NCBI RefSeq assembly: GCF_902652985.1
Contig: NC_047033.1
Location: 13,578,001 to 13,642,000, forward strand
Source: Pecten maximus
Taxonomy: Eukaryota
Length of the DNA: 64,000 bases
Reading direction: 5' to 3'
Shown here: in pieces, positions 27,701-60,700 of the stretch
Layout of the letters: each line of letters starts with the position of its first letter
Numbering within the stretch: the stretch's first letter is position 1
The notes under the pieces: model-generated
What the model was told of the DNA's origin: nothing
Seen by the model: only the letters and a program-made list of their open reading frames with translations
The model's database searches: none
Program-made: the position numbers and the translations under genes

Positions 27701-30700
27701 TAGTAGTGGTCTCGGTATTAGGGTCTCGGTAGTAGTAGTCTCGGTATTAGGGGTCTCGGTATTAGTGGTCTCGGTAGTATGGGTCTCGGTAGTAGTGTTC
27801 TCGGTAGTAGTGGTCTCGGTAGTAGTGGTCTCGGTATTAGTGGTCTCGGTATTAGTGGTCTCAGTAGTAGTGGTCTCGGTAGTAGTGGTCTTGGTAGTAG
27901 TGGTATCGGTATTAGGGTCTCGATAGTAGTGTTCTCGGTAGTAGGCGGATATCGGTAATAGGGTCTGGGTATTAGGGGTATCGGTATTAGGGGTCACGGT
28001 AAAAGGCGGGTCTCGGTAGTAGAGGTCTCGGTAGTAGGCGGGTCTCGGTAGTGGTCTGGGTGTTAATGGTCTAGGTATTAGTGGTCTAGGAAGTAGTGTT
28101 CTCGGTATTAAGGGTCTCAGTATTAGTGGTCTGGGTGTTAGTGGTCTCGGTAGTAGGAATCTCGGTATTAGGGTCTGGGTATTAAAGGTCTCGGTAGTAG
28201 TTGTCTCGGTAGTAGGTGGGTCTCGGTAGTAGGCGGGTCTCGGTAGTATGCGGGTCTCGGTAGAGGTCTGGGTGTTAGTGGTCTCGGTATTAGGGGTCTC
28301 GGTATTAGGGGTCTCGGTATTAGTGGTCTCGGTACTAGGGGTCTCGGTAGTAGTGGTCTCGCTAGTAGGGGTTTCGGTAGTAGTGGTCTCGGTAGTAGGG
28401 GTCTCGGTATTAGGGGTCTAGGAAGTAGTGGTCTCGGTAGTATGGGTCTCGGTATTAGTGATCTCGGTAGTAGTGGTCTCGGTAGCAGGGGTCTCAGTAT
28501 TAGGGGTCTAGGAAGAAGTGTTCTCGGTATTAGTGGTCTCAGTATTAGTGGTCTGGGTGTTAGTGGTCTCGGTTTTAGGGTCTCCGTAGTAGGGGTATCG
28601 GTAGTACGGGTATCGGTAGTAGGGTCTCTGTATTAGGGGTCTCGGTAGTAGGCGGGTCTCGTTAGTAGGCGGGTCTCGGTAGTGGTTTGGGTGTTAGTGG
28701 TATCGGTAGTAGGGGTCTCGGTATTCGTGGTCTCAGTATTAGGGGTCTTGGTATTAGTGGTCTCGGTAGTAGTGGTCTCGGTATTAGGGGTCTCGGCATT
28801 GGGGGTCTCGGTAGTAGGGGTCTCGGTATTAGTGGTTTCGGTAGTAGTGGTCTCGGTAGTAGTGGTCTCGGTAGTAGTGGTCTCGGTATTAGGGTCTCGG
28901 TAGTAGTAGTCTCGGTATTAGGGGTCTCGGTATTAGTGGTCTCGGTAGTATGGGTCTCGGTAGTAGTGTTCTCGGTAGTAGTGGTCTCGGTAGTAGTGGT
29001 CTCGGTATTAGTGGTCTGGGTATTAGTGGTCTCGGTAGTAGTGGTCTCGGTATTAGTGGTCTCAGTAGTAGTGGTCTCGGTAGTAGTGGTCTTGGTAGTA
29101 GTGGTATCGGTATTAGGGTCTCGATAGTAGTGTTCTCGGTAGTAGGCGGATATCGGTAATAGGGTCTGGGTATTAGGGGTATCGGTATTAGGGGTCTCGG
29201 TAAAAGGCGGGGTCTCGGTAGTAGAGGTCTCGGTAGTAGGCGGGTGTCGGTAGTGGTCTGGGTGTTAGTGGTCTAGGTATTAGTGGTCTAGGAAGTAGTG
29301 TTCTCGGTATTAAGGGTCTCAGTATTAGTGGTCTGGGTGTTAGTGGTCTCGGTAGTAAGGATCTCGGTATTAGGGTCTGGGTATTAAAGGTCTCGGTAGT
29401 AGTTGTCTCGGTAGTAGGTGGGTCTCGGTAGTAGGCGGGTCTCGGTAGTATGCGGGTCTCGGTAGAGGTCTGGGTGTTAGTGGTCTCGGTATTAGGGGTC
29501 TCGGTATTAGGGGTCTCGGTATTAGTGGTCTCGGTACTAGGGGTCTCGGTAGTAGTGGTCTCGGTAGTAGGGGTTTCGGTAGTAGTGGTCTCGGTGGTAG
29601 GGGTCTCGGTATTAGGGGTCTAGGAAGTAGTGGTCTCGGTAGTATGGGTCTCGGTATTAGTGATCTCGGTAGTAGTGGTCTCGGTAGTAGTGGTCTCGGT
29701 ATTAGGGGTCTAGGAAGAAGTGTTTTCGGTATTAGTGGTCTCAGTATTAGTGGTCTGGGTGTTAGTGGTCTCGGTTTTAGGGTCTCCGTAGTAGGGGTAT
29801 CGTAGTAGGGGTCTCGGTAGTAGGGTCTCTGTATTAGGGGTCTCGGTAGTAGGCGGGTCTCGTTAGTAGGCGGATCTCGGTAGTGGTCTGGGTGTTAGTG
29901 GTATCGGTAGTAGGGGTCTCGGTATTCGTGGTCTCAGTATTAGGGGTCTTGGTATTAGTGGTCTCGGTAGTAGTGGTCTCAGTATTAGGGGTCTCGGTAT
30001 TGGGGGTCTCGGTAGTAGGGGTCTCGGTATTAGTGGTTTCGGTAGTAGTGGTCTCGGTAGTAGTGGTCTCGGTAGTAGTGGTCTCGGTATTAGTGGTCTC
30101 GGTATTAGGTTCTCGGTATTAGTGGTCTCGGTAGTAGTGGTCTCGGTAGTAGTGGTCTCGGTAGTAGTGGTCCCGGTAGTAGTGGTCTCGGTAGTAGGGG
30201 TCTCGGTAGTGGTGGTCTCGGTAGTAGTGGTTTCGGTAGTGGTGGTCTCGGTAGTAGTGGTCTCGGTAGTATTGGTCTCGGTAGTGGTGGTCTCGGTAGT
30301 AGTGGTTTCGGTAGTGGTGGTCTAGGTAGTAGTGGTCTCGGTAGTGGTGGTCTCGGTAGTAGTGGTTTCGGTAGTGGTGGTCTCGGTAGTAGTGGTCTCG
30401 GTAGTGGTGGTTTCGGTAGTGGTGGTTTCGGTAGTGGTGGTCTCGGTAGTGGTGGTCTCGGTAGTAGTGGTCTCGGTAGTAGTGGTCTCGGTAGTAGTGG
30501 TCTCGGTATTAGTGGTCTCGGTATTAGTGGTCTCGGTAGTAGTGGTCTCGGTAGTAGTGGTCTCGGTAGTGATGGTCTCGGAAGTGGTGGTCTCGGTAGT
30601 GGTGGTCTCGGTAGTAGTGGTCTCGGTAGTGGTCGTCTCGGTAGTGGTGGTCTCGGTAGTGGTGGTCTCGGTAGTAGTGGTCTCGGTAGTGGTGGTCTCG

Positions 30701-33700
30701 GTAGTAGTGGTATCGGTATTAGGGTCTCGATAGTAGTGTTCTCGGTAGTAGGCGGATATCGGTAATAGGATCTGGGTATTAGGGGTATCGGTATTAGGGG
30801 TCTCGGTAAAAGGCGGGTCTCGGTTGTAGGCGGGTCTCGGTAGTGGTCTGGGTGTAAGTGGTCTAGGTATTAGGGGTCTAGGAAGTAGTGTTCTCGGTAT
30901 TAGGGGTCTCAGTATTAGTGGTCTGGGTGTTAGTGGTCTCGGTAGTAGGGATCTCGGTATTAGGGGTCTCGGTAGTAGGGTCTGGGTATTAAAGGTCTCG
31001 GTAGTAGTTGTCTCGGTAGTAGGCTGGTCTCGGTAGTATGCTGGTCTCGGTAGTGGTCTGGGTGTTAATGGTCTCGGTATTAGGGGTCTCGGTATTAGGG
31101 GTCTCGGTATTAGTGGTCTCGGTAGTAGTGGTCTCGGTAGTAGGGGTCTCGGTATTAGGGGTCTAGGAAGTAGTGGTCTCGGTAGTATGGGTCTCGGTAT
31201 TAGTGGTCTCGGTAGTAGTGGTCTCGATAGCAGGGGTCTCAGTATTAGGGGTCTAGGAAGTAGTGTTCTCGGTATTAGTGGTCTCAGTTTTAGTGGTCTG
31301 GGTGTTAGTGGTCTCGGTTTTAGGGTCACCGTAGTAGGGGTATCGGTAGTAGGGGTCTCGGTAGTAGAGTCTCTGTATTAGGGGTCTCGGTAGTAGGCGG
31401 GTCTCGGTAGTAGGCGGGTCTCGTTAGTAGGCGGGTCTCGGTAGTGGTCTGGGTGTAAATGGTATCGGTAGTAGGGGTCTCGGTATTAGTGGTCTCAGTA
31501 TTAGGGGTCTTGGTATTAGTGGTCTCGGTAGTAGTGGTCTCGGTTTTAGGGGTCTCGGTATTAGGGGTCTCGGTATTGCGGGTCTCGGTATTAGTGGTTT
31601 CGGTATTAGTCGTCTCGGTATAAGTCGTCTCGGTATTAGTGGTTTCGGTATTAGGGTCTCGGTATTAGGGTCTCCGTAGTAGTGGTCTCGGTAGTAGTGG
31701 TCTCGGTAGTAGTGGTCTCGGTATGAGGTGTCTCGGTAGTAGTGGTCTCGGTATTAGTGGGCTGGGTGTTAATGGTCTCGGTATTAGGGTCTCGGTATTA
31801 GTGGTCTCGGTAGTAGTGGTCTCGGTAGTAGTGGTCTCGGTATTAGTGGTCTCGGTATAGGTGGTCTCGGTACTAGGGGTATCAGTATTAGTGGTCTCGG
31901 TATTAGGGTCTCGGTAGTAAGGGTATCGGTAGTAGTGGTCTCGGTATTAGGGTTCTCGGTATTTGGGGTCTCGGTAGTAGTGGTCTCGGTACTAGGGATC
32001 TCAGTATTGTGGTCTCGGTAGTAGGGGTCTCGGTATTAGGGGTCCCAGTATAAGTGGTCTCGGTAGTAGTGGTCTCGGTATTAGGGTCTCGGTAGTAGTG
32101 GTCTCGGTATTAGGGGTCTCGGTAGTAGGGGTCTCGGTAGTAGTGGTCTCGGTATTAGGGTTCTCGGTATTTGGGTCTCGGTACTAGGGGTCTCGGTAGT
32201 AGTGGTCTCGGTAGTATGGGTCTCGGTAGTAGTGGTCTCGGTAGTAGTGGTCTCGGTAGTAGGGGTCTCGGTATTAGGGGTCTAGGAAGTAGTTGTCTCG
32301 GTAGTATGGGTCTCGGTATTTGGGGTCTCGGTAGTAGTGGTCTCGGTAGCAGGGGTCTCAGTATTAGGGGTCTAGGAAGTAGTGTTCTCGGTATTAGTGG
32401 TCTCAGTATTAGTGGTCTGGGTGTTAGTGGTCTCGGTTTTAGGGTCTCCGTAGTAGGGGTATCGGTAGAAGGGGTCTCGGTAGTAGGGTCTCTGTATTAG
32501 GGGTCTCGGTAGTTGGCGGGTCTCGGTAGTAGGCGGGTCTCGTTAGTAGGCGGGTCTCGTTAGTAGGCGGGTCTCGGTAGTGGTCTGGGTGTAAGTGGTA
32601 TCGGTAGTAGGGGTCTCGGTATTAGTGGTCTCAGTATTAGGGGTCTTGGTATTAGTGGTCTCAGTTTTAGGGGTCTCGGTATAAGGGGTCTCGGTATTGC
32701 GGGTCTCGGTATTAGTGGTTTCGGTATTAGTCGTCTCGGTATAAGTCGTCTCGGTATTAGTGGTTTCGGTATTAGGGTCTCGGTATTAGGGTCTTGGTAG
32801 TAGTGGTCTCGGTAGTAGTGGTCTCGGTAGTAGGGGTCTCGGTAGTAGTGGTCTCGGTAGTAGTGGTCTCGGTATTAGTGGTCTCGGTATTAGTGGTCTC
32901 GGTACTAGGGGTATCAGTATTAGTGGTCTCGGTATTAGGGTCTCGGTAGTAAGGGTCTCGGTAGTAGTGGTCTCGGTTTTAGGGTTCTCGGTATTGGGGG
33001 TCTCGGTAGTAGTGGTCTCGGTACAAGGGGTCTCAGTATTGTGGTCTCGGTAGTAGAGGTCTCGGTATTAGGGGTCCCAGTATTAGTGATCTCGGTAGTA
33101 GTGGTCTCGGTATTAGGGTCTCGGTAGTAGTGGTCTCGGTATTAGGGGTCTCGGTAGTAGGGGTCTCGGTAGTAGTGGTCTCGGTATTAGGGTTCTCGGT
33201 ATTTGGGTCTCGGTAGTAGTGGTCTCGGTAGTAGTGGTCTCGGTATTAGGGGTCTCGGTAGTAGTGGTCTCGGTATTAGGGGTCTCGGTAGTAGTGGTCT
33301 CGGTATAAGGGGTCTCGGTATTAGTGGTCTCGGTATTAGGGGTATCGGTAATAGGGATCTCGGTATAAGGGGTTTCGGTATTAGTGATATCGGTAGTAGT
33401 GGTCTCGGTATTAGGGGTCTTGGTATTAGTGGTCTCGGAAGTAGGGTCTCGGTATTAGGGGTCTCAGTATTAGTGGTCTGGGTGTTAGTGGTCACGGTAT
33501 TAGGGTCTCGGTAGAAGTGGTCTCGGTATTAGTGGTCTCGGTATTAGGGTCTCGGTAGTAGAGGTCATGGTAGTAGTCGTCTCGGTATTAGTTATTTCGG
33601 TATTAGTCGTCTCGGTATAAGGGGTCTCGGCACTAGTGGTCTCGGTATTAGGGGTTTCGATATTAGTGGTCTCTGTAGTAAGGGTTTCGGTAGTATGGCT

Positions 33701-36700
33701 CTCGGTATAAGTGGTCTCGGTAGGAGGGTCTGGGTATTAGGGGTATCGGTAATAGGGGTCTCTGTATTAGTGGTCTCGGTATTAGTTGTCTCGGTATTAG
33801 TGGTCTCGGTATAAGTGGTCTCGGTAGTAGTGTTTTCGGTATTAGGGTCTCGGTAGTAGTGGTCTCGGTATTAGGGTTCTTAGTAGTAGGGGTCTCGGTA
33901 GCAGTGGTCTCAGTATTAGGGGTCTCGGTGTAAGAACCTCTAATACCGATACCCCTAATACCCAGACCCTACTTCCGAGACCCTAATACCGAGACCACTA
34001 CTACCGAGACCCTAATACCGAAAACACTACTACCGAGACCACTAATACCGAGACCCCTACTACCGAGACCCTAATACCGATACCTCTACTACCGAGATTC
34101 CTAATACGATACCCTAATCCTAAGACCCCTAATACCGAGACCCCTAATACCGAGACCCTAATACCGAGATAAATAATACCAAGACCCCTAATACCGAGAC
34201 CCCTAATACCAAGACCCCTAGTACCGAGACCCTAATACCGATACCACTACTACCGAGACCCCTAATACCGAGACCGTATTTCCGAGAGGCCTAATACCGA
34301 GACCCCTGATACCGAGACCCTATTACCGAGACCCTAATACCGAGATAAATAATACCGAGACCTCTAAAACCGATACTACTAATATCAAGACCCCTACTTC
34401 CGAGACCACTACAACGCGAAATCCCTAATACTTTTCTGTTTGTGATACGGGGATGTAACTCGCTAGGTTGGTTCACATTCTATTTTAGATGCTTATTGCA
34501 TGTTTGACCTGACTGAGTACATGTCACTGCTCTGACGTTGCAAATATGTTTCAGTTGTAATTCATTTATAAGTACAAGTACAGTCATTTATTATCTTTTT
34601 CGTGTGTAAGGAAGGTTTAGTTTATTTGGTATTATGCTGTACCTGATAACATGCTAATTAAAATGAGCAGCCAATTCGAAACGTCCCACCCTTAATTATA
34701 GTTTTAATATTGCGATAATATTTTTTTTAAACACTGCGTGCTATATGACCGTATTGTCATACCGGAGAACATCATATATATTTCACTCGTGAGACAAAGT
34801 GTTTCAATAGGTTCCCCTCGTGTTTCACATCAGCGGAATTGACAACGATGTGTATATACTCTTTGTTTTGTAGCAATATTTCATTGCTCATTAGCTAATT
34901 TTGTGAAAGCACGATTAATAATTAAAACTCGATGTCTATTCAATGTGTTTGCTTCTTCCACACGTTGACGTTATAACCTGTCAAAATGTATGTTGTCTAA
35001 GTTATATGATGAACCGTTTCTTAAATTTGTTTTAATTTCACATTTGTTACACGTTTCTACTTTACATTCTGATTTTTGAAGCAGATTAACACTAATGAGT
35101 CCTAGAGGACCAAAACACCTAAATGATCCTATATCGTGAACCCGCATATAGATTACTGTATAAATGAAACTTTATCTTTAAACATATTGGATAAACCCTT
35201 ATGAACCTGAAATCTATGACACTGCGGTCTCTTATCATTTTTCATTGTTACCATAACGCGCTGTGTTCTTGGTATCTTCCTGATGAAATGATATTTGTGT
35301 TATGCTTAATAAAAAATATATCTTTTTAATACAATGCGTTAGCTAGCTCACGCGATACTTAATATACATTATTGTATTTGAGTCTTGATTTGGTCAATTT
35401 CATGGGGTCATGAATTGAGTTGCTCTTGAGACAAATTTAATGAACTGCGAAGCAGTTCATGTTGAATTTGTCTCAAGAGCAACTCAATTCATGACCCCAT
35501 GAAATCGACCAAACCAAGATTCAATCCTTATTGTTATATTGTTTGTTTTTTTTTTCTAATAAAAATGTCGGTCTAGATATTAATGTCTCAAAGCTTGTGC
35601 AAGTCCAAATACGGAAAAGCCCGAGGAGTTCCGGATTGTGCATGTCTAGTCGGTCGAGTAAAATAGTCCGCAATTTTAGGATTAAAAACAGCTTTAGTTT
35701 GTCAAAATAGAAGTATCTAGCATATCTGGTTTTTCATAAAATACAAGAATACATTATAAATCTGATAATTTTAATAATTATTTCATGTTTATAACAACAA
35801 TGTAGAAAAAGTGAAATCGTTCCGCGGAAGGATTTTAACCATGTATTCATACGCACTGATCAATGTTAATCTGGTCAAATTCATGAGCAAATGAAACAGA
35901 TTAAGTTTGGTAGTTTCATTGAGTCCAACTTGAGTAGAAATTGAAATATTAATGTATAAAAAAAAACTTTATTCAATGAAATAAACATGTATTCTTGATA
36001 CAGTCTGATCCGAATCATATTAAATCACTGTGCTGACCGTTGAATGTTTGGAAACAAGTCTATATTTATCAATAATGGACCATTGGTGAGGTCAAGATGG
36101 TGTTGAAACGACCTGGTAGAGTCAGCCTTTAGGGATTTATTTGCGTTATGTTAATATTCAAGAGCAGGAAATTTACCTTGGTCATTGTGTCGTCAAAATG
36201 ATTATTACGTCATCAACCCAAAATCAAACTTGATTTGGCGTTTCAAAGGATTAGAAACGTCAGGTTAATATCTTAAAATACTGACCTTCACATGACCATG
36301 TTTACGTCAACGAAAATTGAGAAAATCGAACGATATCTAATATAAAATTCCCATATACTAAATACTGATAAAGGGACGAATTGCTATGTTTGCAGGTGAT
36401 GATTGGGAAATCAAAGTCAGTATGTCTACTGTTACCAGTTTGACCACACACATTAACCTAACAGTTACATTCTACGAGCGAGGTTTGACCAGCAGCAGTA
36501 TTGCGTCAAGCGTTACCATCTTAATAAGGAAAAATCTTACCGAAGACACGCCCACTAAAGCTGACGTCAGTATCCCTGGTATTACAAGACCAATGAAAAT
36601 CGACGTATGGGATATTGAAACGGAATTTGTATCTTTACAATTACTGGAGGTATGTAATGTGCTATAGGAATATTTTACTTGCCTTGGAATTACGGGCACT

Positions 36701-42700: not shown

Positions 42701-45700
42701 AGAGAGCCTTCCTGATAAAATTAGGATACGTGTCGTGAGATAGTAATGCATGTCAAAAAGGTAACTCCGAATATGATAGTAATGCATGTCAAAAAGGTAA
42801 CTTCTGATAAGATAGTAATGAATGTCAAAAATGTAACTCCGGATAAGAAAGTAAAATGTCAAAAATGTAACTCCGGATAAGAAAGTAAAATGTCAAAAAT
42901 GTAACTCCGGATAAGAAAGTAAAATGTCAAAAATGTAACTCCGGATAAGAAAGTAAAATGTCAAAAATGTAACTCCGGATAAGAAAGTAAAATGTCAAAA
43001 AATGTAACTCCGGATAAGAAAGTAAAATGTCAAAAATGTAACTCCGGATAAGAAAGTAAAATGTCAAAAATGTAACTCCGGATAAGAAAGTAAAATGTCA
43101 AAAATGTAACTCCGGATAAGAAAGTAAAATGTCAAAAATGTAATTCCGGATAAGAAAGTAAAATGTCAAAAATGTAACTCCGGATAAGAAAGTAAAATGT
43201 CAAAAATGTAACTCCGGATAAGAAAGTAAAATGTCAAAAAGGTAACTCCGGATAAGAAAGTAAAATGTCAAAAAGGTAACTCCGGATAAGAAAGTAAAAT
43301 GTCAAAAATGTAACTCCGGATAAGAAGGAAATATCCAAACCTAGGTCTAGATGTGCCCAGAATTATGTCAACGTTTCATCATATGTATTTTTCATTTCAG
43401 ATAGTTTTCATTCATAAGCTCACCTGTAACACCTTCATCTTTACCTGTGGGCGAATAATGCACTACCCCATGACACGTAATATTAGAAGTACAGGTAAGT
43501 GCATGGTTCATCAAGTTGTCAATTAAAAGAAAAGATCTTGTTTGTTGGGTTCTGATTAAATAACTTATGAAAATGTTTGTATCACTGACTCATTACACTA
43601 ATTGGATACTTCGCAATCCTATATATATATATAGGGTCTAGTAAATAATAACGACGGTATAAACCAATATAGGTACTGGATCCTAACAAACAAATATTGG
43701 ATGCGTATTACTAGAAATAGATATATGTCAAGTAGCAATAGGAACAGTTACACAAATATAGTAGGCATTCTTACGGAAGCGTATAGGTACGGAAGCGTAT
43801 AGGGGACACGACATACTTATTTATAATACATTATGTATAGTTATCATATCCCGTTTTACACACATATTTACTGTTATCTTGAGATAGATATGTCGACATA
43901 ACATACTTTATCTTCACATTTTACAGTTAAATAATCCAACTTATACATATAAAAGCATCTATCTAGAGTAAACATACATCGATATACATAATGTCAGTAT
44001 AAGTCCTTATAACACTATCTCGACTTGTTGCATTATATCTAATATGTTAATTTTACCGAAATCGACCTGTATATATATTTACCCTGAAGTTGAATCTTTT
44101 TATCGAGTTTTCGTGACATATTTAGTTTTATCAAGATGTGTAATATCGAGAAATCGTTTTGCAATATGGCTATTCGAGTAACGTGGAATCGTTTTTACAA
44201 CAACTATATCAACAATTCGAGTTTGACATTTCGAGAAATTCTACAACATCATGACAAGTTGAGTTGACGTAAGTCAAATTCATTAAACAGACACAACAAT
44301 TTGACATAAAAAAATGCGGGAATAATATATGTACGGTAATGTATGTCGAGAAGATTACCTGGCGTTCTTTATATACATTTGTAGCTAGGTTTAGACGGCG
44401 ATTTGGAAAATTTCTGGTATATTAGCCAATCGGAGCCAAGTATTGGTCCAAACATAATCTTATAGAAAGTGATCTTCATGACGAAGATTAGTCTTAACCA
44501 TGAGGAAACTTCTTCATACAAAGGTGCCGTTCTCGATTGTGATTGGCTGATGTAAAAGCCCAATCACAGTCGAGTAGACGCTCAGATTTCTTCCACGGGG
44601 ACATAATTTCCCAGCTTACGATCCATACATGCGTGTTAAAACAATATTGTAGGCTAAGAAATCGCGCCAAGTCCCTGGGATTTCTTTCGTATGAAAAGGG
44701 TTTCCACATTTAAAACAAATCTTAATCATGACGATAAAAATACACAAAAACTTTTTTTCACACAGGTCAACTTTATTTTACAAATACATACACTTAAATT
44801 TCAATCTTAACCTTTTTGCCGTTATTTACGACGATGACCATACCGACACTGTCCGGAACATGAATGGTTAAAGAGTCGTTCGAGTTCACTAGCACTGCAT
44901 TTTCAAACATATTTTCCTTAGATCCGTCGTCCGGGTTCTTTATCGCTGAGGAGTAACTAGGGGTAGCACCTGTACTTGAACTTGATTGTAAAGCAACAGA
45001 GTTTTCAATATTCTCGTTTTCTGTGTTTCTAACAGGGGGATTCAGAGAGTTACTGATATCCTTGAGCATATGCGTGAGTTCGCGCTTGTATAGATTTACA
45101 GCAGAGATGCGGTGCCAGGATCTTGAAGTTACAGCTTTATCATCAAACCCCTGGTTATAGAGTGTAGTACAACATGTGACACGTCCTCTATGATTGGAAA
45201 TATATCTACCACTTGTATCAATACCGGCCTCATTGTAGAATTTTTTCATCCTATTTCTCATGTCTTTCTCGGGAATATCTGCGGCACCAAATCGAGGATA
45301 TTTGTATTTGTCAGACAATGGTAATGGTTTCTTGTAAAAGTTTCCTTTTCCCAGGAATAAGGGACAGGTATAATGAGTACAATTTTATCAAACACCTAGG
45401 ATTTTCTGGACTAGCAAAATGTTTTACCTTTTTTGGTGCTACTTTTCGGTGGTTCAGTCCCCCTTGAGTATTTTTGGTTACTCTGGATTCGTAAAGAATG
45501 TATTCCTGTCCGTTTTCACGATCCGTTTCAATTTTGAACTGTTCCGCTTCCAAGTTTTTGTGCTCCTCCATGCCTCTAATTCCGAATGCCTTGCAGTTGT
45601 AAAAAAAAATACTGCATTTGATAAACCTTCCGCCGTATTGAAATTAAACACTCCTGATTCCCAGAATGTATTCTCCTCTCCAGGTAACACAGAATCCTTT

Positions 45701-48700
45701 GTTTTAACGTGTACACCAATTCCAAGAGAAGTAAGCTCTTTCATACGGGAATCCAGTGATTTTCTGAAGTTATCAAATGTAGCACTGTTACGCTGAAACA
45801 AACGTATTTCCTGACGATTCAATTCGTCGCGCAAATGTCTCTAAATTCCAGATCCAATCTGAGCTAGAGTGTTGGGAGGGTACGGCGTTCCGTCTTTCCT
45901 CATAATTTCGATAATAATCTGGACAGCCAGAAATCTAATGCTTTTGTATCGGTCATACTCAAATCCAAGGGAAGTGCGTACTGTTCATTATATGTTTCCG
46001 GCAACGTTTTCCGGTGAACCACCAAGTCGTTCCATATCGAAACACACCATTTAGTATTTGATCTTGTTTTCTTTCGAATCCTGTCAATGTGTTTTTTAGC
46101 CACATCCTCCGACGATAACGCGGGCCTAAAGCTTTCGGAATTCCTCGATACTTGAGCATCATCAGTTCTAAATGCCGATAAATTCAGTGTTGGAATAAAA
46201 GTTTCTAATTGTGTCAAACTGACAGACGCCCAGCTTCGCCCCTCTCAAAATCATGAAGATTTTTCTTAATATCATCTAACCTTTACTACCGTAGTAGTTT
46301 CCAAACCAGATAGTCGGAGGATAAGTCAGGGAATTTCTGATGCAAGAACGCTTTACAAAAGAGTATTGGAGGTGTATGATCCTGGCAGTGAGATGGCTAT
46401 AGTTTGGGCCGGTAAAATTGAAAGGCTAAAGCCAGTAAGAGGCTAAATGTCTGCATATTAGAATCCCGAGAAACGCCCAGTAATTTTATCTATTCGACGA
46501 GAACTTGAGTACAGATTGAATCGAAGTAATAACATTGCTTCCATAAAACCATCATGTGTGATACTTTCAACAAAACAATTACTGTACGGGGTATAGTATG
46601 GGCTACATTTTAAGCTGTACAGTGTACATTCTACAAACGGCAATTCAAAAACAAAAGGTTTTTTTTTAATTTTACTAGTAGACTACATATATCTTCAGCG
46701 CAGTGTTGCTAAACATGCTCAAATGGGGGAAATGTGCCAGGTATGGGGATGCATAAACAAGGGCAGATAACCATATAAATTCACTTATGAATCATATTGA
46801 AAGGTTCTACCGAGTTTACCGTCATATAAATCTTGTTCATGCCCAAGTTAATGTCCTAGACATGTATAAATCATGGGGATCTTATGAGCATACTTAAAAT
46901 CTTATCCCTTCAAATAACGAAATGGTATAGAAAATTTCCAAATAAGTCGAAGAGCCCAGCAATACAACATATCAATTTAATTACAGTGAAACATCGGTAT
47001 TCAAACCTCATTAGAGACTTGACAGAATTGGTAATAGTGAGTGTGACCATGCGGACAGGTCTTTCCAGTTGCTATTTTTCAGTATATTTTCATAAGTATT
47101 TAATTAGCAAGTGGGCTTCATTATATTAAACACTAGTTGCTTAAGCATTGAACTGCATTCAGTTGCCATTAATGGGTATATGAATGCCAACTAGACAAAG
47201 GCAAATCCAACGAATCAAGAACAATGCTTATATTTACAATTTTTGCAATATGTTCATCTCATAAAAAATCACTGCATCATTTGTGATTGTGCAGTTGGAA
47301 CAGCCATCGTCCATCAGGGTATGTGGTCCCCAACGTTACAATTATAACGTCGTTATAATGATGATGTCAACTATAGGTCCATGGTAGCTATTGAGTTTGG
47401 AAATGATATTTCAGTCTATGATGAGGTCAATATAGTGTTATACCGACCTAGTAGAGTGAAATATTAGCCGAGAGCGAAGCCCGAAGTCAATATTTTAGAT
47501 ATCAAAATATCGACATCTACATGACTAGGATTTAGCCAATGAGAATTGAGGAAAATCGGAGCATATCTATATTCTATGAATTTAGGTTTATGTTTTACAT
47601 CCGGCGGACCCGTATATTAGTGCAAAAGCCTTCCTGCGATAGTGTTTTAGTGAGGTATTCTATATCTTTAATGATATATTGAAAAAATATGTATGATCTA
47701 ATCATATCATTGTTTTTGAACATTAACCATCTTGAGCAGTTTATTACCCTGTGCATGGGCTCTGCTTCAAAAGCACATAAGCATATCGGCTATAAGATAT
47801 TGTCATGTATTTAGGGGTCATTTAACTGTGTATTCTGTATATAATTTGTTATGCATTTTATTAGCCTTTGCTCGTGGACAGAGTTAAAGAAGTATTTGGG
47901 CAGCTAAGTAGCCATAGATAATTGTTTTGGTTCGGAAGCTGTAGATTAGAGTGACCGTGTGAAATCTTGTGTGGAGAAGTCTAGTCTGTGACATCACTTG
48001 TTAGGGAGGCCGAATGAGCTGACCTGTAGGTCAATCTAAAGTTATCCTTATCAGCAGCCTCGATTTAGGTACCAGTATTCTGACAAAGGGGAGCACATTT
48101 AGAATAGGGATTTCGGAAAGAGCGGTCAGTTGTTAGTTAGTCGGTAGCCAGCGGTCAGTAGTGAGCAGTACGTAGGACTAGTGAGTTGGAGATCAGACAG
48201 TAAAGAGGTCTGGAGGTTAGGGTTTTATAGTAGAGAATAGAAGTGAGCAGATTCGAGGAGATCTGAGAGTTGAGAATATATTCCAGAGATCGGATAGTTA
48301 TAGTAGTCTTAAGAGTAGTTTGTGGTAGATAGTGTGAATAATAGTGTGTAGTTTTAGTAGTTGGAGTTAACAACTGAGTAGATGTACAGGTAGTAATAGA
48401 GAACGATTGGAGACTAGTGTGGAGTGCCTTGATATTGACTGATGAATTTATTATATGATTTATGATGTAAATAAAGTGTAAATATAATCTTAGATAACTT
48501 TTGTTCAATTAATTTTGAACTGGTGGCAGCGGTAAAGACAAACGGCGAGATACAGAAACGTAATACTGGTACCAGTGGACGAATTGTTAGAGTTTACAAA
48601 ACTTGCAACACTGGTGGTCGCGGTGGAATTTAGAGTTGACAAAACATGTAACAATATGTACAATGCAACAATGATGAATTTTTAGAAAATGTAATGATTT

Positions 48701-51700
48701 CATCAGTGTGATTTTTGGACAAAGTGTGTGTGTTTTATTGTCGTTATAATATGATAATTATGATAAAGTGTCCGGTTTTCTTAAAATTCATTTTTCTCAG
48801 TGATTATTTAAAGGATAATTTAGGTCGATAAGCCAAATATCTTGCTCACATGCGATGTCAGATCAGTTAATAGCGGCGACGAACATTGATGTACAATGTT
48901 ATTGAAATGTTCATTTCTATATTATTAACCAAAGGTGAAATTAGGCAGTACATTTGTACCTACTGTTAAGATTTTTTAAATTAGGCGTTAACAAAGATAT
49001 TTTCAGCAGAATGGTCAAAGCACAATGTTAAAAACAACACCGCATTTGAAATAGAGTTTATTTTGTTTCATTTTAATGCAATACACACAATGTATACAAG
49101 TAATCACTTTGTAGTACTAAATAGTATCGCGACATTGTATTTATTCATGTACTAGTATGTATAAATAGGCACTCGTTACCACAGTTTCATTATTCTGGAC
49201 TTTGGGAGACAACATTACTTCAAAACGTCTAGTTAAGCTGTAAACATTCTTATTGCTTCATTGGCCGTCCTTGGTTGCACAAGCTCGTCGCGATTTGTAT
49301 CTGAAAGTAATTCCACAATTTGCAGAAAATTGTCATTGCAGTCAAACTTTGGAAATGGGACGGTATAGATATCAGCAACACGTTCCACGTCTTGTTGTTC
49401 AAAGGGAACAGGGAGAGAATAGTAAATTGTACCAAATAATTCTGGTTGGAAATAGGGTACATTTGGTATTCCACAGTAACAGTCACTTAAATGCTGTTGT
49501 CGTATGCGGTGCCTGTTCCACATGTATCTAAACTCATCAAGCTGTCTCTGTATCGCGCCAATAAAACAGAATATTACGCACTCAATATGAATAGGATATG
49601 TATCTTGCAGTATCCCAGAATCACCCAGGCCTTTGAAAAGTGACTTCCAAAACTGTATTACATGTCTGTTAAGGAAACCCCAAAACATTTCGATCCTTTG
49701 ATTGGCTGTGGAACGTCCTTTCAGAAATACGGGCTGGCCTGCTACTGCATCCGGATGACGTGATCGCAGAGTTTTATGCAAGTCTTCGATTATTACATTT
49801 TCTGTACCGTTATCAGAACGAATACATCTAGGAACAGTCATGGTTCGTAAAACCTCATCTATATAAAACCGTGCAACATATCGTGGGTTGTTGTTGGTGA
49901 ATCAAGCTTTCAACCAAACAATTCGTCGCGAAAATCCGTCGATTGAACCATGTATCGCAATACCGTAAGGTTTAAGCATATCGAATCCATCCATGTGCAT
50001 CAGGAAATTCGATCCCTTATTGTAGTATAACCGTCTCCGTAGTCTGTGACTTCTGCGATTATTTACGCCTTCATTGTCAATTAGTCGTAGTGCTGTCGAG
50101 TCATTAACTGTGTAACACGCAATCCACACCTAGTATTCAGCAGTTTCCATACCGTTCTGTACCCGACGTCAATTAGACCTGCATCCCGGAGTCTTCGGAT
50201 TCCCCGTTTGACATCTCGAGCCGGAGCTCCTGCGTTAGAACGACGCAGTCGTTGTCTACGAAGTATTCTTTTCAGCTGCCGTAAATTCAAAACAACATCA
50301 TGATGGATCAAAAGAAATCCAAGGATTTCATAATACGTATAACCATCATTGAAGTAAAACGTGACCATTTCGTCCAGATTTGAATCATCATTTATGAATA
50401 TGTCAGGGTCATCTGCGCCGTCTACTGCCACCACAAGGAAGATTGACAACACCAGTACAATCTGTAAAATACAAAATGACCACAATACTATCTCAAATAA
50501 CAATTGGTGTAAACATGTTTCGCAATGGATCTTCTTGAAAACTTCAACATCTCGGTAAAAGACACTTATTGTTCTTATTATTTATAATAACATTCCAGTA
50601 AGTTTTCTTTATTTAGAATAATTAAAATTGATACCAATGTCTATGCATTGGATATGCATTACGGAAAATAATTCATTAGCAGTTCTCGATTATACAAATA
50701 AATTTAATGCAATTGAAGGAAATTTCGCCCCCTGTTATTTTCGCTCTCGGCCATTAAAATCCTTTTTAACTGAGAGGCCAAACCGGTATAAAGTACTGAT
50801 TCAGCAACTCTATTGTTTAGTCTCAATTTGGTCCTCTAACTTCCAAGATTTTTCAGAGGTTATCCAAGGCAGAATCATGTGCCGTGATAATTTAAAAAAT
50901 ATAATAATTATTGCTTATTATATTTACCTGCTTCAGTGGCAGCATATTCCAAAATTATTGTTGTACGTCCACACTCAATAGTAGCAGCTCTCCCTTCTTC
51001 AAACGCTATGCAAATGCCCTTGTATCTTATTAATTTTATTGTTCTTTTGTAGAGGAAAACATCAACAGTACTAAATCGAAATACATCAGTATGAGCTATT
51101 GTATAACCAGACAAATCGTTTTACTACAATTAAGCAATTAAGATTTAACTTGCCAAGTCGAGAAGTTTACCTAAATGTAGCCGAGTATAAGTTAATATCT
51201 CAACAACACCTACGTCGAACATGAACTTTCAAACTTAAAATTCGAGATAATATAAATCGTGTTCAAATGTTATACCTTATTCTTACCGGTTTTTTTCTTG
51301 GGATGGCAAGATATATTTCGTAAACACGAGTTATAGTATTTTGAGATATGAAAAAAAAAATATAAAAACCACAAACATTAAGTTAAAATGTGAAAGTACA
51401 AGGCTCTAAAGACAACAAATTAGATATTGAAATAACTAAGTATATGGATAATTCAAGATAGTGTTATAAGGACTTATAATGACATTATGTATATCGACAT
51501 ATGTTTACTCTAGATAGATGATTTTATATGTATAAGTTGGATTATTTAACTGTAAAATGTGAAGATAAAGTCTGTTATGTCGACATATCTATCTCAAGAT
51601 AACAGTAAATATGTGTGTAAAACGGGATATGATAACTATACATAATGTATTATAAATAAGTATGTCGTGTCCCCTATACGCTTCCGTATATAGGGGACAC

Positions 51701-54700
51701 GGCATACTTATTTATAATACATTATGTATAGTTATCTACGGAAGCGTATAGGGGACACGACATACTTATTTATAATATATTATGTATAGTTATCATATCC
51801 CGTTTTACACACATATTTACTGTTATCTTGAGATAGATATGTCGACATAACATACTTTATCTTCACATTTTACAGTTAAATAATCTAACTTATACATATA
51901 AAATCATCTATCTAGAGTAAACATATGTCGATATACATAATGTCATTATAAGTCCTTATAACACTATCTTGAATTATCCATATACTTAGTTATTTCAATA
52001 TCTAATTTGTTGTATTAGAGCCTTGTACTTTCACATTTTAACTTAATGTTTGTGTTTTTTTACAGTTTTTTTCATATCTCAAAATACTATAACTCGTGTT
52101 TGCGAAATATATCTTTCCATCCCAAGAAAATAAACAGGTAAGAATAAGTTATAACATTTGAACACGATTTATATTATCTCGAATTCTAAGTTTGAAAGTT
52201 CATGTTCGACGTAGGTGTTGTTGAGATATTAACTTATACCGGGCTACATTTAGGTAAACTTCTCGACTTGGCAAGTTAAATCTTAATTGCTTAATTGTCG
52301 TAAAACGATTTGTCTGGTTATTACAATATCTCATAATGATGTATTTCGATTTAGTACTGTTGAAGTTTTCCTCTACAAAAGCACAATAATATTAATAATA
52401 TACAAGGGCATTTGCATTGCGTTTGAAGAAGGGAGAGTTGCTACTATTGAGTGTGGACGTACAACAATAATTTTGGAATATGCTGCCACTGAAGCAGGTA
52501 AATATAATAAGCAATAATTATTATATTTTTAAAATTATCACGGCACATGATTCTGCCTTGGATAACCTCTGAAAAATCTTAGAAGTTAGAGGACCAAATT
52601 GAGACTAAACAACAGAGTTGCTGAATCATATACCGGTTTGGCCTCTCAGTTAATGGGTGAAAATGAAAAGTCGGCTAAAATAGATGGTATCATACAAAAG
52701 ACCGGCTGACTCAAGGGCAAATCTAAGACTGAGGAAAAAAGGATTTTAATGGCCGAGGGCGAAAATAACACTGGGCGAAATTTCCTTCAATTGCATTAAA
52801 TTTATTTGTATAATCGAGAACTGCTAATGAATTATTTTCCGTAATGCATATCCAATGCATAGACATTGGTATCGATTTTAATTATTCTAAATAAAGAAAA
52901 CTTACTGGAATGTTATTATAAATAATAAGAACAATAAGTGTCTTTTACCGAGATTTTGAAGTTTTCAAGAAGATCCATTGCGAAACATGTTTACACCAAT
53001 TGTTATTTGAGATAGTATTGTGGTCATTTTGTATTTTACAGATTGTACTGGTGTTGTCAATCTTCCTTGTGGTGGCAGTAAACGGCGCAGATGACCCTGA
53101 CATATTCATAAATGATGATTCAACTCTGGACGAAATGGTCACGTTTTACTTCAATGATGGTTATACGTATAATGAATCATTGGATTTCTTTTGATCCATC
53201 ATGATGTTGTTTTGAGTTGACGGCAGCTGAAAAGAATACTTCGTAGACAACGACTGCGTCGTTATAACGCAGGAGCCCCGGCTCGAGATGTCATACGGGG
53301 AATCCGAAGACTCCGGGATGCAGGTCTAATTGACGTCGGGTACAGAACGGTATGGAAACTGCTGAATACTAGGTGTGGATTGCGTTGCACAGTTAATGAC
53401 TCGACATGCACTACGACTAATTGACAATGAAGGCGTAAATAATCGCAGAAGTCACAGACTACGGAGACGGTTATACTACAATAAGGGACCGAATTTCCTG
53501 ATGCACATCGATGGATTCGATAAGCTTAAACCTTACGGTATTGCGATACATGGTTCAATCGACGGATTTTCGCGAGGAATTGTTTGGTTGAAAGCTGGTT
53601 TCACCAACAACAACCCACGATATAATGCACGATTTTATATAGATGAGGTTTTACGAACCATGACTGTTCCTAGATGTATTCGTTCTGATAACGGTACAGA
53701 AAATGTAACAATCGAAGACTTGCATAAAACTCTGCGATCACGTCATCCGGATGCAGTAGCAGGCCAGCCCGTATTTCTGAAAGGACGTTCCACAGCCATT
53801 CAAAGGATCGAAATGTTTTGGGGTTTGCTTAACAGACATGTAATACAGTTTTAGAAGTCACTTTTCAAAGACCTGAGGGATTCTGGGATACTGCAAGATA
53901 CAGACCCTATTCATATTGAGTGCGTAAGATTCTGCTTTATTGACGCAATACAGAGACAGCTAGATGTGTTTAGATACATGTGGAACAGGTACCGCATACG
54001 ACAACAGCATTTAAGTGACTGTTACTGTGGAATACCAAATGTACTGTATTTCCAACCAGAATTATGTGGTACAATTAATTATTCTCTCCCTGTTCCCTTT
54101 GAACAACAAGACGTGGAACGTGTTGCTGATATTTATACCGTCCCATTTCCAAAGTTTGACTGCAATGACGATTTTCTGCAAATTGTGGAATTACTTTCAG
54201 ATACAAATCGCGACGAGCTTGTGCAACCAAGGACGGCCAATGAAGCAATAAGAATGTTTACAGCTTCACTAGACGTTTTGAAGTAATATTGTCTCCCAAA
54301 GTCTAGACTAATGAAACTGTGGTAACGAGTGACTATTTATACATACTAGTACATGAATAAGTACAATGTCGCGATACTATTTAGTACTACAAAGTGATTA
54401 CTTGTATACATTGTGTATATTGCATTAAAATGAAACAAAATAAAGTCTGTTTCAAATGCGGTGTTGTTTTTAACATTGTGCTTTGACCATTCTGCTGAAA
54501 ATATCTTTGTTAACGCCTAATTTGAACATCTTAACAGTAGGTATAAATGTACTGCCTAATTTCACCTTTGGTTAATAATATAGAAATGAATATTTCAATA
54601 ACATTGTACATCAATGTTCGTCGCCGCTATTGACTGATCTGACGCCGATCTGACTGATCGACCTAAATTATCCTTTAAATAATCACTGAGAAAAATGAAT

Positions 54701-57700
54701 TTAAAGAAAACCGGAAATCTTTATTATACTTATCATATTATAACGACAATAAAACACACACACTTTGTCCAAAAATCACCCTGATGAAATCATTACGTTT
54801 TCTAAAAATGCATCATTGTTGCATTGTACATATCTTATAGCCGATATGCTGATGTGAATGGATACTTTTGAAGCAGAGCCCATGCACAGGGTAATAAACT
54901 GCTCAAGATGGTTAATGTTCAAAAACAATGATATGGTTAGATCATACATATTTTTTCAATATATCATTAAAGATAAAGAATACCACACTATAACACTATC
55001 GCAGGAAGGCTTTTGCACTGATATACGGGTCCGCCGGATATGTAAAACATAAACCTAAATTCATAGAATATTGATATGCTCCGATTTTCCTCAATTCTCA
55101 TTGGCTAAATCCTAGTCATGTAGATGTCGATATTTTGATATCTAAAATATTGACTTCGGGCTTCGCTCTCGGCTAATATTTTATTCTACTAGGTCGGTAT
55201 AACACCATATGGACCTCATCATAGACTTATATATCATTGCCAAACTCAATAGCTACCATGGACCTATAGTTGACATCATCATTATTACGACGTTATAATT
55301 GTAACGTTGGAGACCACATACCCTGATGGACGATGGCTGTTCCAACTGCACAATCAGAAATGATAAAAAAATAATAATGCAGTGATTTTTTATGTGATGA
55401 ACATATTGCAAAAATTGTAAATATTTGCCTTTGTTTAGTTGGCATTCATATACCCTTTAATTATAAAATATAATGAAGCCCACTTGCTAATTAAATAATA
55501 ATGAAAATATACTGAAAAATAGCAACTGGAAAGACCTGTCCGCATGGTCACACTCACTATTACCAATTCTGTCAAGTCTCTAATGAGGTTTGAATACCGA
55601 TGTTTCACTGTAATTAAATTGATATGTTGTATTGCTGGGCTCTTCATCTTATTTGGAAATTTTCTATACCATTTCGTTATTTGAAGGGATAAGATTTTGA
55701 GTATGCTCATTCCGGAAACTACAGACTTTACTCACAATTATGATCAACATGGACAGCTAACCACAAAGCTATACAATAGGTCCTAAACGTGACGATTTTG
55801 ACCTTCCGGTCGTAAATTTCCCTTTCTCGACAGCATCATTCCTGTTTCTCGATCCTAAGATATTTACATGTTGCAGTTGTTTCAGTTTTTTAAAGCTCAT
55901 TTCCTTGATATATTTCGGCTGCTGGCTAAAAATACTTGAGAGATTCTGGTTGATGAAAACTTTGGGCAAGTTTTACGGTCGCCACTTTCATCTCATCATG
56001 GAATATTCGGTCTCCTTGTTTGATTTGAAGGTGGACGTTTTATCGTTTGATTATTCATGCCCAGTGTTGTTATGTTGTTTATGCCTTGGTTCTGATTTGA
56101 AGGATGTGACCTTTACTTGAATGTGACCAAGATTTGCATGATGGATGTCGTCGACGAAGCAGTGTACGTTTTTGTTCGATTTTTGATGATGGTGGGCTAA
56201 AATGAAGGTGTTCAAATGAAGGTGTTCTATATTAACACAAAGGATGGCTATGTTTTAAGTTAGAGACTTATCTCCATAACATATACATATCAAATATCTC
56301 CGGTAAGCACATATATAGCGCATGTAACAGTTATAATACAAACTATTAAATACCCTCCCTTTGATATTTCTACTTATTAATTGTTCTAAAAATGTGTACG
56401 TTCAAGGAACACCCCAATCTCTAGTACGAATATGCATACGCTCCCTACACTATGCTCTAACGACGACCATCTGTCAGCAATCGTCCGTCCGTCGTTAGAG
56501 CAACGATATCGCAGCGACCCAATCTCACAAGGAACACAACCTTGGTTCATAACTGTATTCCATGTACATTTTGTATCTTGCATTATATTATATTTAGTTT
56601 TTTGTATACATTGTACTCAGTTACTGTATACTTCAACAGGTATAAATCGTCACCATATTAGATACAGATTAATATCAATGTATGTAATGTAAGGATAGGA
56701 TGCATGAGTTTCTCGATGTAACTGCTGAAAACTGGATATGAAAACATAACATAAGAGAATATATATCAACAAATATTCTATTTGAAAAAAAACATTAGCA
56801 TGCTTCTCAATCACAATAAGACAAGAACACCTCAAAACAATTGGAATCATACTGACCCTCGTACCCTTTAACTAAGAATAAGAGTAAAAGAAGCAATTGA
56901 GACCTGTGTCACACCTAGTGAATGTTCTAAATCAGCAGCAATAACGTTCAGCATATGTGACAACATATCAACAAGTCAAACGACATGGTTAAATGAAGCA
57001 TAAAAAGTAGGTCAAGAATATGCCTGTAACACACATTTAGACACCAAGCAAACATACCAACCAAACTGTGTACCTTAGGACGGATGGACGAGCACAAATC
57101 TACATTCCCTCAACCTTGTTGCAAGGGAAACAATATTTGGTATACAATATGAAAGAACTTACAAGGCATAATAGACCCTTCATATTACCGGGTATACACA
57201 AAACAATCAGAAAAAAAATATGCATAAATATACTCAGTAGGCTTTTTTTTTATAAACAAGCATCTGGCAGTGTAATATCACAAAACGTTTGTCATAAAAT
57301 ATCACATATTGCTTTGAGTAACCACTTGTCAATGTGCAGATATAATGACTGCAAAATATCAAAATATATTGGCTGCAAACTATGTGCAGTTTTACAGAAG
57401 GATACTTCCCACCAAACATTATTGAATTTGGCTAATCGGTTCTTTAATGTGATATAGAAAACCATTTGACCATTTACCCCTATTTAGCCCCCATGTTACG
57501 CAAATGTGAGCACAACTACCTTTTATAATACATAAATGTAATATTTTCACATGGGGATGTTTCCTCCCACATTTTGCACTATTTCAATACCCCTAGGTTT
57601 TCCCCCGTTTTGTTTACAAACTTTGAAGCCTTGTTCCTTTGGACTCTAGATGTCAATAATGAAGTCAATTGGACTGTTGGTTCATGAAAAGATTTCTCCA

Positions 57701-60700
57701 ATTTTACCCCTTTTCTCGAAGGGTCCACATCATTTTCCTTCAAATGTATCTATAGAACGCCAGGTAATCTTTTCGACATACATTACAGTACATATATTAT
57801 TCTCGCATTATTTTATGTCAAATTTTTGTGTTTGTTTAATGAATTTGACTTACGTCAACTCAACTTGTCATGATGTTGTAGAATTTCTCGAAATGTCAAA
57901 CTCGAATTGTTGATATAGTTGTTGTAAAAACGATTCCACGTTACTCGAATAGCCATATTACAAGACGATTTCTCGACATTACACATCTTGATAAAACTAA
58001 ATATGTCACGAAAACTCGATAAAAAGATTCAACTTCAGGGAAAATATATATACAAGTCGATTTCGGTAAAATTAACATAATAGATATAATGCAACAAGTC
58101 AAGATAGTGTTATAAGGACTTATAATGACATTATGTATATCGACATATGTTTACTCTAGATAGATGATTTTATATGTATAAGTTAGATTATTTAACTGTA
58201 AAATGTGAAGATAAAGTATGTTATGTCGACATATCTATCTCAAGATAACAGTAAATATGTGTGTAAAACGGGATATGATAACTATACATAATGTATCATA
58301 AATAAGTATGTCGTGTCCCCTATACGCTTCCGTACATTCTTGCAACAATACGATATTTTTTGTTGTTTATACCTGCTATATTTGTGTAACTGTTCCATGT
58401 TCTATGTCTATATGTGATCGTATGTAATTTACCTGTGTCTTGATAAAGGGGCAGATTGCCTCGAAAATTCGACAATTTACTTGTCTGTACTGTCGTTATT
58501 ACTACTTGACATATATATATATATATATATATATGCAATATGTGCGGCTGCGTCTTGCTTGTTTGATGTTATACCTAATTTGTAGATTGTACGTTGGTTT
58601 TATTTGATCTATAGTTGTTGATTTTCATATGGGGTAATAGCTGGCGATTTGTGTGGGAGATGTTTGAGGGAGTGTGTGAGTGTGGGAGTGTGTGTGAGGG
58701 TGTGTGTGTGTGGGAGATGTGTGAGGGAGTGTGTGTGAGGGAGTGTGTGAGGGAGTGTGTGTGAGGGAGTGTGTGTGTGGGATTGTGTGTGAGGGAATGT
58801 GTGTGTGGGAGATGTGTGAGGAAGTGTGTGTGGGTATAGAAATATCTGATGAGCATTTATTTACGCGCTATACACCTATATAGTATTGCATCATAGGATA
58901 ATGATGATCGGTGTTTTAAGAAGCATTGCTGTTTGGCTTTTAGGAACAAAAGTTGTTGTTGTTTTTTATAGTTGTACTATTTTGGTATGTAATGTTTCAT
59001 GTGTTGTCTGTCATTTCATATCGAAAGTTGATTAGATTTCAGCTGTTGTTTGTTCGACTCGCCAATTCGCAAAAACAAAATCGCTTTTTAAAAAATCTCC
59101 ACTAGTCAATACTAATCTTAACGCATATTTTACAGGTGTTAGGCATGACTGCTTCCCTACAACTACAACTACCTCTACCACCACCTCCACTACCACCACC
59201 ACTACCACCACCACCACCACCACCACTTCCACTCCTAGTACAACTGATTTCACTACTACTGACACCACTAGTACAAATGCTTTCACTACTTCTGACAATC
59301 CTGGTACAAATGCTTTCACTACTTCTGACACCCCAAGTACAAATGCTTTCACTACTTCTGACACCCCTGGTACAACTGCTTTCACTACTTCTGACACCCC
59401 TGGTACAAATGCTTTCACTACTTCTGACACCCCTAGTACAAATGCTTTCACTACTTCTGACACCCCTAGTACAAATGCTTTCACTACTTCTGACACCCCT
59501 GGTACAAATGCTTTCACTACTTCTGACACCACTAGTACAAATGCTTTCACTACTTCTGACACCCCTAGTACAAATGCTTTCACTACTTCTGACACCCCTA
59601 GTACAAATGCTTTCACTACTTCTGACACCCCTGGTACAAATGCTTTCACTACTTCTGACACCACTAGTACAACCGCTACCACCACAACTGACATTCCTAA
59701 AACTACCACTACCATTCCTACAACCTCAACCTCCTCCACTCTCACTGAATATCTATCAACAAGCGAGTCACCGACCACTAGTACCGCCATCGCCACCACT
59801 TCTACTGTCACTACAACTGAATCTCCACAAACAACCGTAACAGAGTCAGCAACGACAATGGAGGCAAATGAAACAACTACTACCAATGCATCGACAAACG
59901 CAACCGGTAAATAAGGTCGAAACGGGAATACAATGTCTTCTGAATCCCAGTGTCTGTCACGATTTTTAACATGCTAAGTAGTAAGCGTTTTGATCAGAAC
60001 ATCATAACTTTTAAGTGTTTGGGTTTTGAATTCACCAGCCGTTGATATTTTGTTACAAATATCCTAAAGTGTTTATCATCAGTTGGAGATTAGTATTATG
60101 CCTTGTACAATGTGGTTATCTATGGTAGGTTTTATACCTCCTAATTTCGTGGATGTTATATTTAATATATCCTTATTTGTTTTAAGATATGATTTTAGAG
60201 ATATTACTTTTCATGTTTGATTTCAGACATCGTAAGTCGGTGGTGTTAGGCTTCAAACATACTAATTTGTCGAAATTCCTTAACATCCTCCAATATATCA
60301 AATTGTTCCTCTCTTGACGTACCTTCTCTGAACTGTTAGTTATTTAACAAACTTCATACGGACGAATAGGAAAAGCCATTTTCTTAGGTCAGACTTAAGA
60401 TTTGACCATTCTGTCTGGGTTGCTATCTTTTTAACAGATAACGTGATTTCTTTAAATTTAACACTCGAAACCATGGTTACGCAACCAACTTTTAATATAT
60501 CTTATTATGCACAAAGCAAGGAGTAAAGAGTGCTCAATTTCGTTAGGAAATTTCCCAATGATGAACATTTGCAAGTACATTTTATATGCTAAACGTCCTT
60601 ACAGTATTTCGATATGTAAAATAACATTGGCTGCTCATTGGAAAATATATCCCAGCAAACAAATTTATCTTAGATTGATGCAAGATGCAAGATGCAAGAA

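Follow-up and report, generated by a model that had tools for sequence, protein, structure and literature searches.

Transposases of an animal IS3EU-type transposon branch carry a predicted cleavable ER signal peptide, in part encoded by a micro-exon

IS3EU/GingerRoot transposons are defined, in the portion of PMC10045372 available to us, by TA..TA ends and 6-bp target duplications, and IS3EU elements are described as encoding two proteins (PMC8232023, in excerpt). According to the same partial sources, these elements also have terminal inverted repeats and an integrase-like DDE core without HHCC, and are found in oyster, coral and fish. A signal peptide or transmembrane segment is not mentioned in the available portions of PMC10045372 or PMC6839031, and no transposase leader was found among the papers listed on IS3EU, GingerRoot and signal peptides, although Repbase entries and supplements may hold one. 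Such a leader runs counter to the route expected of transposases, which is from the cytosol to the nucleus. For trafficking, the closest described system is HBV precore (p25/p22), a nucleic-acid-binding protein with a cleaved ER signal and a product that is cytosolic or secreted; after cleavage of its ER signal peptide, p22 can return to the cytosol (PMC9300162, in excerpt). The two differ in that fold and element are unrelated, and the trafficking is shown for precore and proposed here for the transposase; besides, precore is dispensable for infectivity, whereas the transposase is the only enzyme found in its element.

The window analysed here, a 64,000-nucleotide stretch of Pecten maximus DNA from an assembly of 918 Mb, contains a large inverted repeat around 51712 that consists of two head-to-head copies of one DNA transposon. 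Copy 2 (51737..58334, + strand, 6.6 kb) has TACGG...CCGTA ends and terminal inverted repeats of about 240 bp, the 5' repeat (51737..51975, +) being 98% complementary to the 3' repeat with which it pairs (58096..58334, -). Copy 1 (43788..51688, - strand, 7.9 kb) has the same ends and inverted repeats of about the same size, and is flanked by the target duplication TATAGG (43782-43787 and 51689-51694). The whole nest lies between two copies of the target duplication CATTCT, the left one (43766..43771) followed by a 16-bp piece of terminal inverted repeat split by copy 1 and the right one at 58335..58340. Both ends were found in seven of nine further copies fetched from the genome, all reading TACGG...CCGTA, with a 6-bp target duplication that is exact in six of these and matches at five of six letters in one. 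Since TA..TA ends and 6-bp duplications define that group, we file the element as IS3EU/GingerRoot, a type to which it belongs by termini, duplications and DDE core rather than by tree placement. Its inverted repeats are longer than the 100-150 bp given for GingerRoot in the text available. The transposase matches PF24764 (rva_4), and its predicted structure (pLDDT 89.8) shows a helical N-terminal domain and a DDE fold which, together with the conserved D, D and E, corresponds to the integrase-like core without HHCC. The nearest named homologues are bivalve proteins. The best Foldseek matches of the predicted structure are IS21 IstA, Tn7/CAST TnsB and foamy-virus integrase (E 4e-5 to 2e-4), which share the RNase H-like DDE core at low overall TM-scores (0.2-0.3 by query). 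These are prokaryotic or retroviral proteins that are not known to have a secretory leader.

The nest has some features of its own. Copy 1 is inserted in the terminal repeat of another copy, at base 16 (43766-51737), and an extra piece of terminal repeat (51689-51736) precedes copy 2; copy L010 likewise lies head-to-head, just upstream of the first exon of the L119 family described below. The nested positions of copy 1 and L010 hint at insertion near IS3EU 5' ends. No long second ORF was found in copy 2 or in a 16.7-kb copy of an intact family (see below), in a search that genes of small exons could escape. A Crypton-like gene is carried by 5 of 11 copies in place of the second IS3EU ORF. It is broken in the 3' half of copy 1 (44794-46244, -), where it has DUF3504 and phage-integrase matches, and it also lies inside four of the nine other copies (L018, L022, L023 and L024); being present in several copies, it has travelled as cargo of the IS3EU element. 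An 850-bp insert in copy 1 (about 47800-48654) is likely a solo LTR, and its sequence occurs twice in L017, around retroelement-like ORFs. Elsewhere in the window, an open frame of 910 aa (4138-6870, -), which contains a reverse transcriptase domain (RVT_1), is likely a non-LTR retrotransposon, and strand-skewed long tandem repeats (about 14800-34000, -, and 59030-59970, +) contain Thr/Glu/Pro-rich or Thr-rich mucin-like frames.

In copy 2, the transposase gene begins with a coding micro-exon (52480..52497, +) that reads MLPLKQ, has an A at -3 of its ATG and an in-frame stop four codons upstream, and would supply the n-region of a signal peptide. A phase-0 GT-AG intron of 544 nt follows (52498..53041, +), with donor GTAAAT and acceptor ...TTTTACAG (53041), and exon 2 opens with a hydrophobic h-region and a predicted c-region ending V-N-G (53042..53086, +), so that cleavage is predicted after residue 21 of the leader. 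The sequence of copy 2 thus places exon 1, donor, acceptor and hydrophobic run where the first-pass annotation had put them, and its claim that copy 1 retains all four is also confirmed (micro-exon at 50928..50945, -; exon 2 from 50461; intron of 466 nt). The ATG at 52480 begins the sole phase-0 micro-exon of the form ATG..GT[AG]A in the 1.3 kb that reach from the 5' end of the element to 52990, and it is also the sole candidate under a second donor rule. Of the 16 loci given, 15 aligned at the micro-exon, and all 15 retain its ATG and the GT of the donor; the AG of the acceptor is likewise present in 15 of 15. One copy has a stop in exon 1 and another has deletions in the leader. Since the copies resemble each other at about 95-100%, such retention carries little weight on its own. 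With regard to the Sec/SPI pattern, a basic residue stands soon after the Met in MLPLKQ and in the corresponding MELSK, MTVYK and MESSNILK, MAFL being without one; an uncharged hydrophobic h-region of 7-15 residues follows, and V-N-G supplies the small residues at -1 and -3 of the window leader. The body of the transposase, an HTH followed by the rva_4 DDE domain, occupies 53087..54286 (+) in copy 2, with catalytic codons at 53510 (D), 53687 (D) and 53810 (E), and is disrupted by a TAG at 53852-53854 as well as by two small deletions, one near 53174 and the other near 53383. In copy 1, exon 2 with h-region and transposase (49233..50461, -) is disrupted by a frameshift (near 50093), by a TGA (49902-49904) and by a premature stop (49233-49235). 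Both window copies are therefore broken downstream in the gene, and neither makes a full protein.

Eight of 24 listed public sequencing runs, none of them on record as RNA, were compared with the leader region. The junction 52497/53042, at which spliced reads would be expected, is crossed by one low-depth contig from run X7 (labelled as a second organism, organism B; RNA guessed), which skips exactly the 544 nt with GT..AG borders; it has a depth of 2.3 and 94 nt, its short side of 30 nt falls just below the 31 that the tool requires, and its joint is read as 52494->53039 (cut +3). In contigs of X4 and X8, which belong to two other studies, different sequence is joined at this acceptor, and all three joined forms keep the h-region, which is located in exon 2. 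Neither of the upstream pieces, from X4 or from X8, could be located in the window, nor was that of X4 found in the genome to which the window belongs; they may be exons of the host or alternative first exons of organism B. At window 53040 the frame of these upstream sequences is open over the 28-30 letters shown. Unspliced contigs, which may be DNA or pre-mRNA, run across the donor or acceptor in X1, X2, X3, X7 and X8; no joint at the leader was seen in X1-X4 among the matches listed, and from X5 and X6 there was no contig over 52150-53500. X7 differs from the window at 2 of 98 letters at the start of exon 2; the figures are 15 of 169 for a piece that covers exon 1 with the beginning of the intron and 10 of 129 for one covering mostly the intron end, all of them small numbers.

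The same layout recurs in other families: each of the four examined has one phase-0 micro-exon donor within 950-1756 bp of upstream DNA. A second family in the same genome, 45% identical to the window family, has at least 12 stop-free loci, and four compared copies are 99.6-99.7% alike over about 9.9 kb. Its sole candidate donor follows MELSK, 804 nt ahead of the acceptor, and its hydrophobic run ends S-E-A, ahead of the conserved motif. This intact family is very young and is the best natural subject for experiments. One copy of 16.7 kb has a 6-bp target duplication; the 3' ends of two of the three extended copies were not found, and at L136/L142 (G000:C3:52510784 onward, 16.7 kb) the family contains much nested repeat DNA. 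A third, stop-free family, L119 (53% identical), begins MTVYK, and a metagenome locus, L026 (45% identical), begins MAFL. In the 15 listed of 43 members of a Mytilus cluster, four models start at an acceptor-like MFQ and eight RefSeq models have an 8-residue segment ending in K before the same hydrophobic run, and we infer that these model starts are RNA-supported splices. For the window family, no stop-free full-length copy was seen among 85 matches (98 of 297 candidates scored), and P0002, a stop-free protein of 429 aa that is 97% identical, is an intact relative from elsewhere.

The wider distribution of the leader was assessed in 120 homologues, reduced to 91 at 80% identity, of which 81 were scored after setting aside 10 without an N-terminus. 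By a signal-peptide rule of our own (an uncharged 8-residue window with mean hydropathy of 2.3 or more, followed by small -3/-1 residues), 41 of the 81 passed, two of them partial, compared with 10 of 1121 internal windows. Among the 40 near homologues that fail, many look cut at an internal Met by gene calling and some are truly leaderless. The profile is common to homologues at 37-55% identity in bivalves, corals and a brachiopod, including Mytilus, Argopecten, Pinctada, Saccostrea, Montipora, Acropora and Lingula; the leader lies in one exon in coral-type members and is split by an intron in bivalve-type members. This breadth bears on the first-pass annotation, in which a transposase appeared to acquire a spliced signal-peptide-like leader. 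The spliced leader on an HTH and DDE transposase is borne out by the junction contig, by the micro-exons of other families and by the homologue profile, and its conservation across homologous transposases, which that annotation had proposed to test, proves wider than was supposed there; the word "acquire", however, misleads for a trait shared at such distances. In our trees, which were made with no outgroup and no AU test, leaders occur on both sides of a 99* split, intermixed with leaderless rows, and the leader would be either an old trait with many losses or one with repeated gains. None of 18 named fish homologues passed the rule and some closer relatives are leaderless, which indicates that the leader is not needed for IS3EU transposition. 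In many outer-group IS3EU transposases of fish and coral (P0279, P0296, P0470, P0546 and others), an N-terminal zinc-ribbon-like CxxC..CxxC stands in the leader's place.

When 32 rows, chosen beforehand with a less strict form of the rule and including one doubtful row, were anchored on a YxP motif of the mature protein, residue -1 was small in 29; positions -16 to -6 were hydrophobic with few charges, and K was enriched at -19 to -17. At least seven leaderless relatives have a Met at exactly -1 of the same motif, and one of these leaderless loci, L038, has a stop upstream and no acceptor nearby. The start of the leaderless proteins is thus in register with the predicted cut, and for this reason the cleaved form looks selected. 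Among leader-bearing rows, the catalytic D, D and E are kept in 59, 58 and 59 of 59. Because the catalytic residues are kept and the intact family is young, the leader would sit on a working enzyme, unless leaderless families of the same genome mobilise the elements in trans.

We consider it very probable that the leader-bearing transposases are targeted to the ER and cleaved there. As for what follows, we tentatively favour release, somewhat short of an even chance. The micro-exon spliced onto the hydrophobic run would give a cleavable ER signal peptide; the transposase would be targeted to the ER and clipped by signal peptidase just before the conserved motif, and the cleaved enzyme would slip back to the cytosol and enter the nucleus as the same mature form that leaderless relatives make directly. 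Release itself, for which the case is weaker than for cleavage, might follow if passage through the translocon stalls at the strongly basic HTH, 40-110 residues past the cut, and surplus protein may be degraded or secreted, so that activity would also be damped. Stalling of translocation by basic residues is known. The net charge after the predicted cut is -10 in residues 1-40 and +15 in residues 41-110, although such a basic stretch is expected of any HTH and does not single out stalling. We favour release over export because it involves one membrane step fewer and has a precedent in HBV precore, and because of this basic block and of a sequon in the window family right after the second catalytic Asp, where lumenal passage would be expected to lead to glycosylation.

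Full secretion nevertheless deserves weight as an unlikely but substantial alternative, in which a large branch of animal IS3EU transposons would secrete its transposase for other cells, from soma to germ line or from host to host. The cleaved protein would enter oocytes or stem cells through its arginine-rich HTH and mobilise copies in cells where transcription of the element itself is silenced, or aid spread between aquatic hosts. The leader has a textbook cleavable profile, and the conserved cleavage site fits secretion as well as it fits release; the superfamily is moreover widespread in aquatic animals, with horizontal transfer proposed (PMC6839031, in excerpt). Sequons are fewer than in shuffled sequences in leader-bearing rows (76 vs 102 +/- 9.5) and the intact family has none in 452 aa, but the depletion is of similar size in leaderless rows of that clade (63 vs 80), and cysteine content is alike in leader-bearing and leaderless rows, so that neither measure tells the two groups apart. 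Sequons persist in 41 of 59 leader-bearing rows, and the protein would have to pass through a membrane a second time. A self-limiting sink seems slightly more doubtful still: most of the protein would be diverted to the ER and destroyed, and the fraction escaping SRP, with its leader still on, would transpose. Cut-and-paste elements are known to fare well with little transposase, and the leader is retained alongside an intact DDE, yet a sink has no need of a precise cleavage site. Its register with the leaderless N-terminus instead implies that the cleaved product matters, which tells against a pure sink and also against an uncleaved anchor holding the transposase at the ER or inner nuclear membrane. 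Such tethering, raised in the first-pass annotation, is highly improbable; there is a single N-terminal hydrophobic helix (residues 4-32 of P0002 are modelled as helical, in part from intron read-through), but the h-region is short, at about 10-13 residues, the -3/-1 pattern is conserved, and a basic n-region is matched by an acidic flank after the h-region. By the positive-inside rule, this arrangement would put an anchored enzyme in the lumen.

There is also little likelihood that the run is no ER signal at all and reflects a structural helix, a translated polypyrimidine tract or an artefact of gene calling. Intron residues are indeed read through in some database models (P0002 and P0164), and CAG lies across the predicted cleavage site in 4 of 19 coral-type leaders. 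In 19 loci hand-picked from 80, however, T reaches 0.69 at codon position 2 compared with 0.39 and 0.38 at positions 1 and 3 and with 0.31-0.32 in the upstream DNA, a concentration that marks coding bias rather than a polypyrimidine tract; in 15 of the 19 an in-frame Met lies 15-29 codons upstream, within one exon with the leader, and 15 have no AG at the site. On these observations we reject the polypyrimidine-tract artefact. Furthermore, the h-region of the window lies downstream of the acceptor used in the X7 contig, and the leader sequence varies across homologues while the n/h/c pattern is kept. Just as improbable as the anchor is a model with two starts, in which the nuclear enzyme would arise by leaky scanning to a downstream Met and the leader form would be a by-product. 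The Met in question (53135..53137, +) has G at -3 and +4, and 15 of 57 leader-bearing homologues have some Met between mid-leader and the first HTH helix. This is below the roughly 46% expected from Met frequency, the column itself is Met in only 2 of 57, and the site lies inside HTH helix 1. The nuclear isoform suggested for this Met does not hold in general, although a second start may serve single families; with 42 of 57 lacking any such Met, it does not rescue the usual picture of a transposase.

The superfamily is known, and the surprise is a real, family-wide leader that is predicted to tag the enzyme for export. Across deep divergence, a predicted cleavable export signal has been kept by a transposon branch of corals, bivalves and a brachiopod that is catalytically intact and recently active, and whether this means a detour through the ER, an inbuilt limit on dose or transfer of a protein from cell to cell, each would be new for a DDE enzyme. 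Leaderless relatives occur naturally and an intact family is present in the same genome, which makes a direct test possible. If secretion is true, this would be a DNA transposon with a cell-non-autonomous enzyme and with no capsid or envelope, and passage from cell to cell would open a testable way past germ-line silencing and help to explain why aquatic animals commonly carry these elements.
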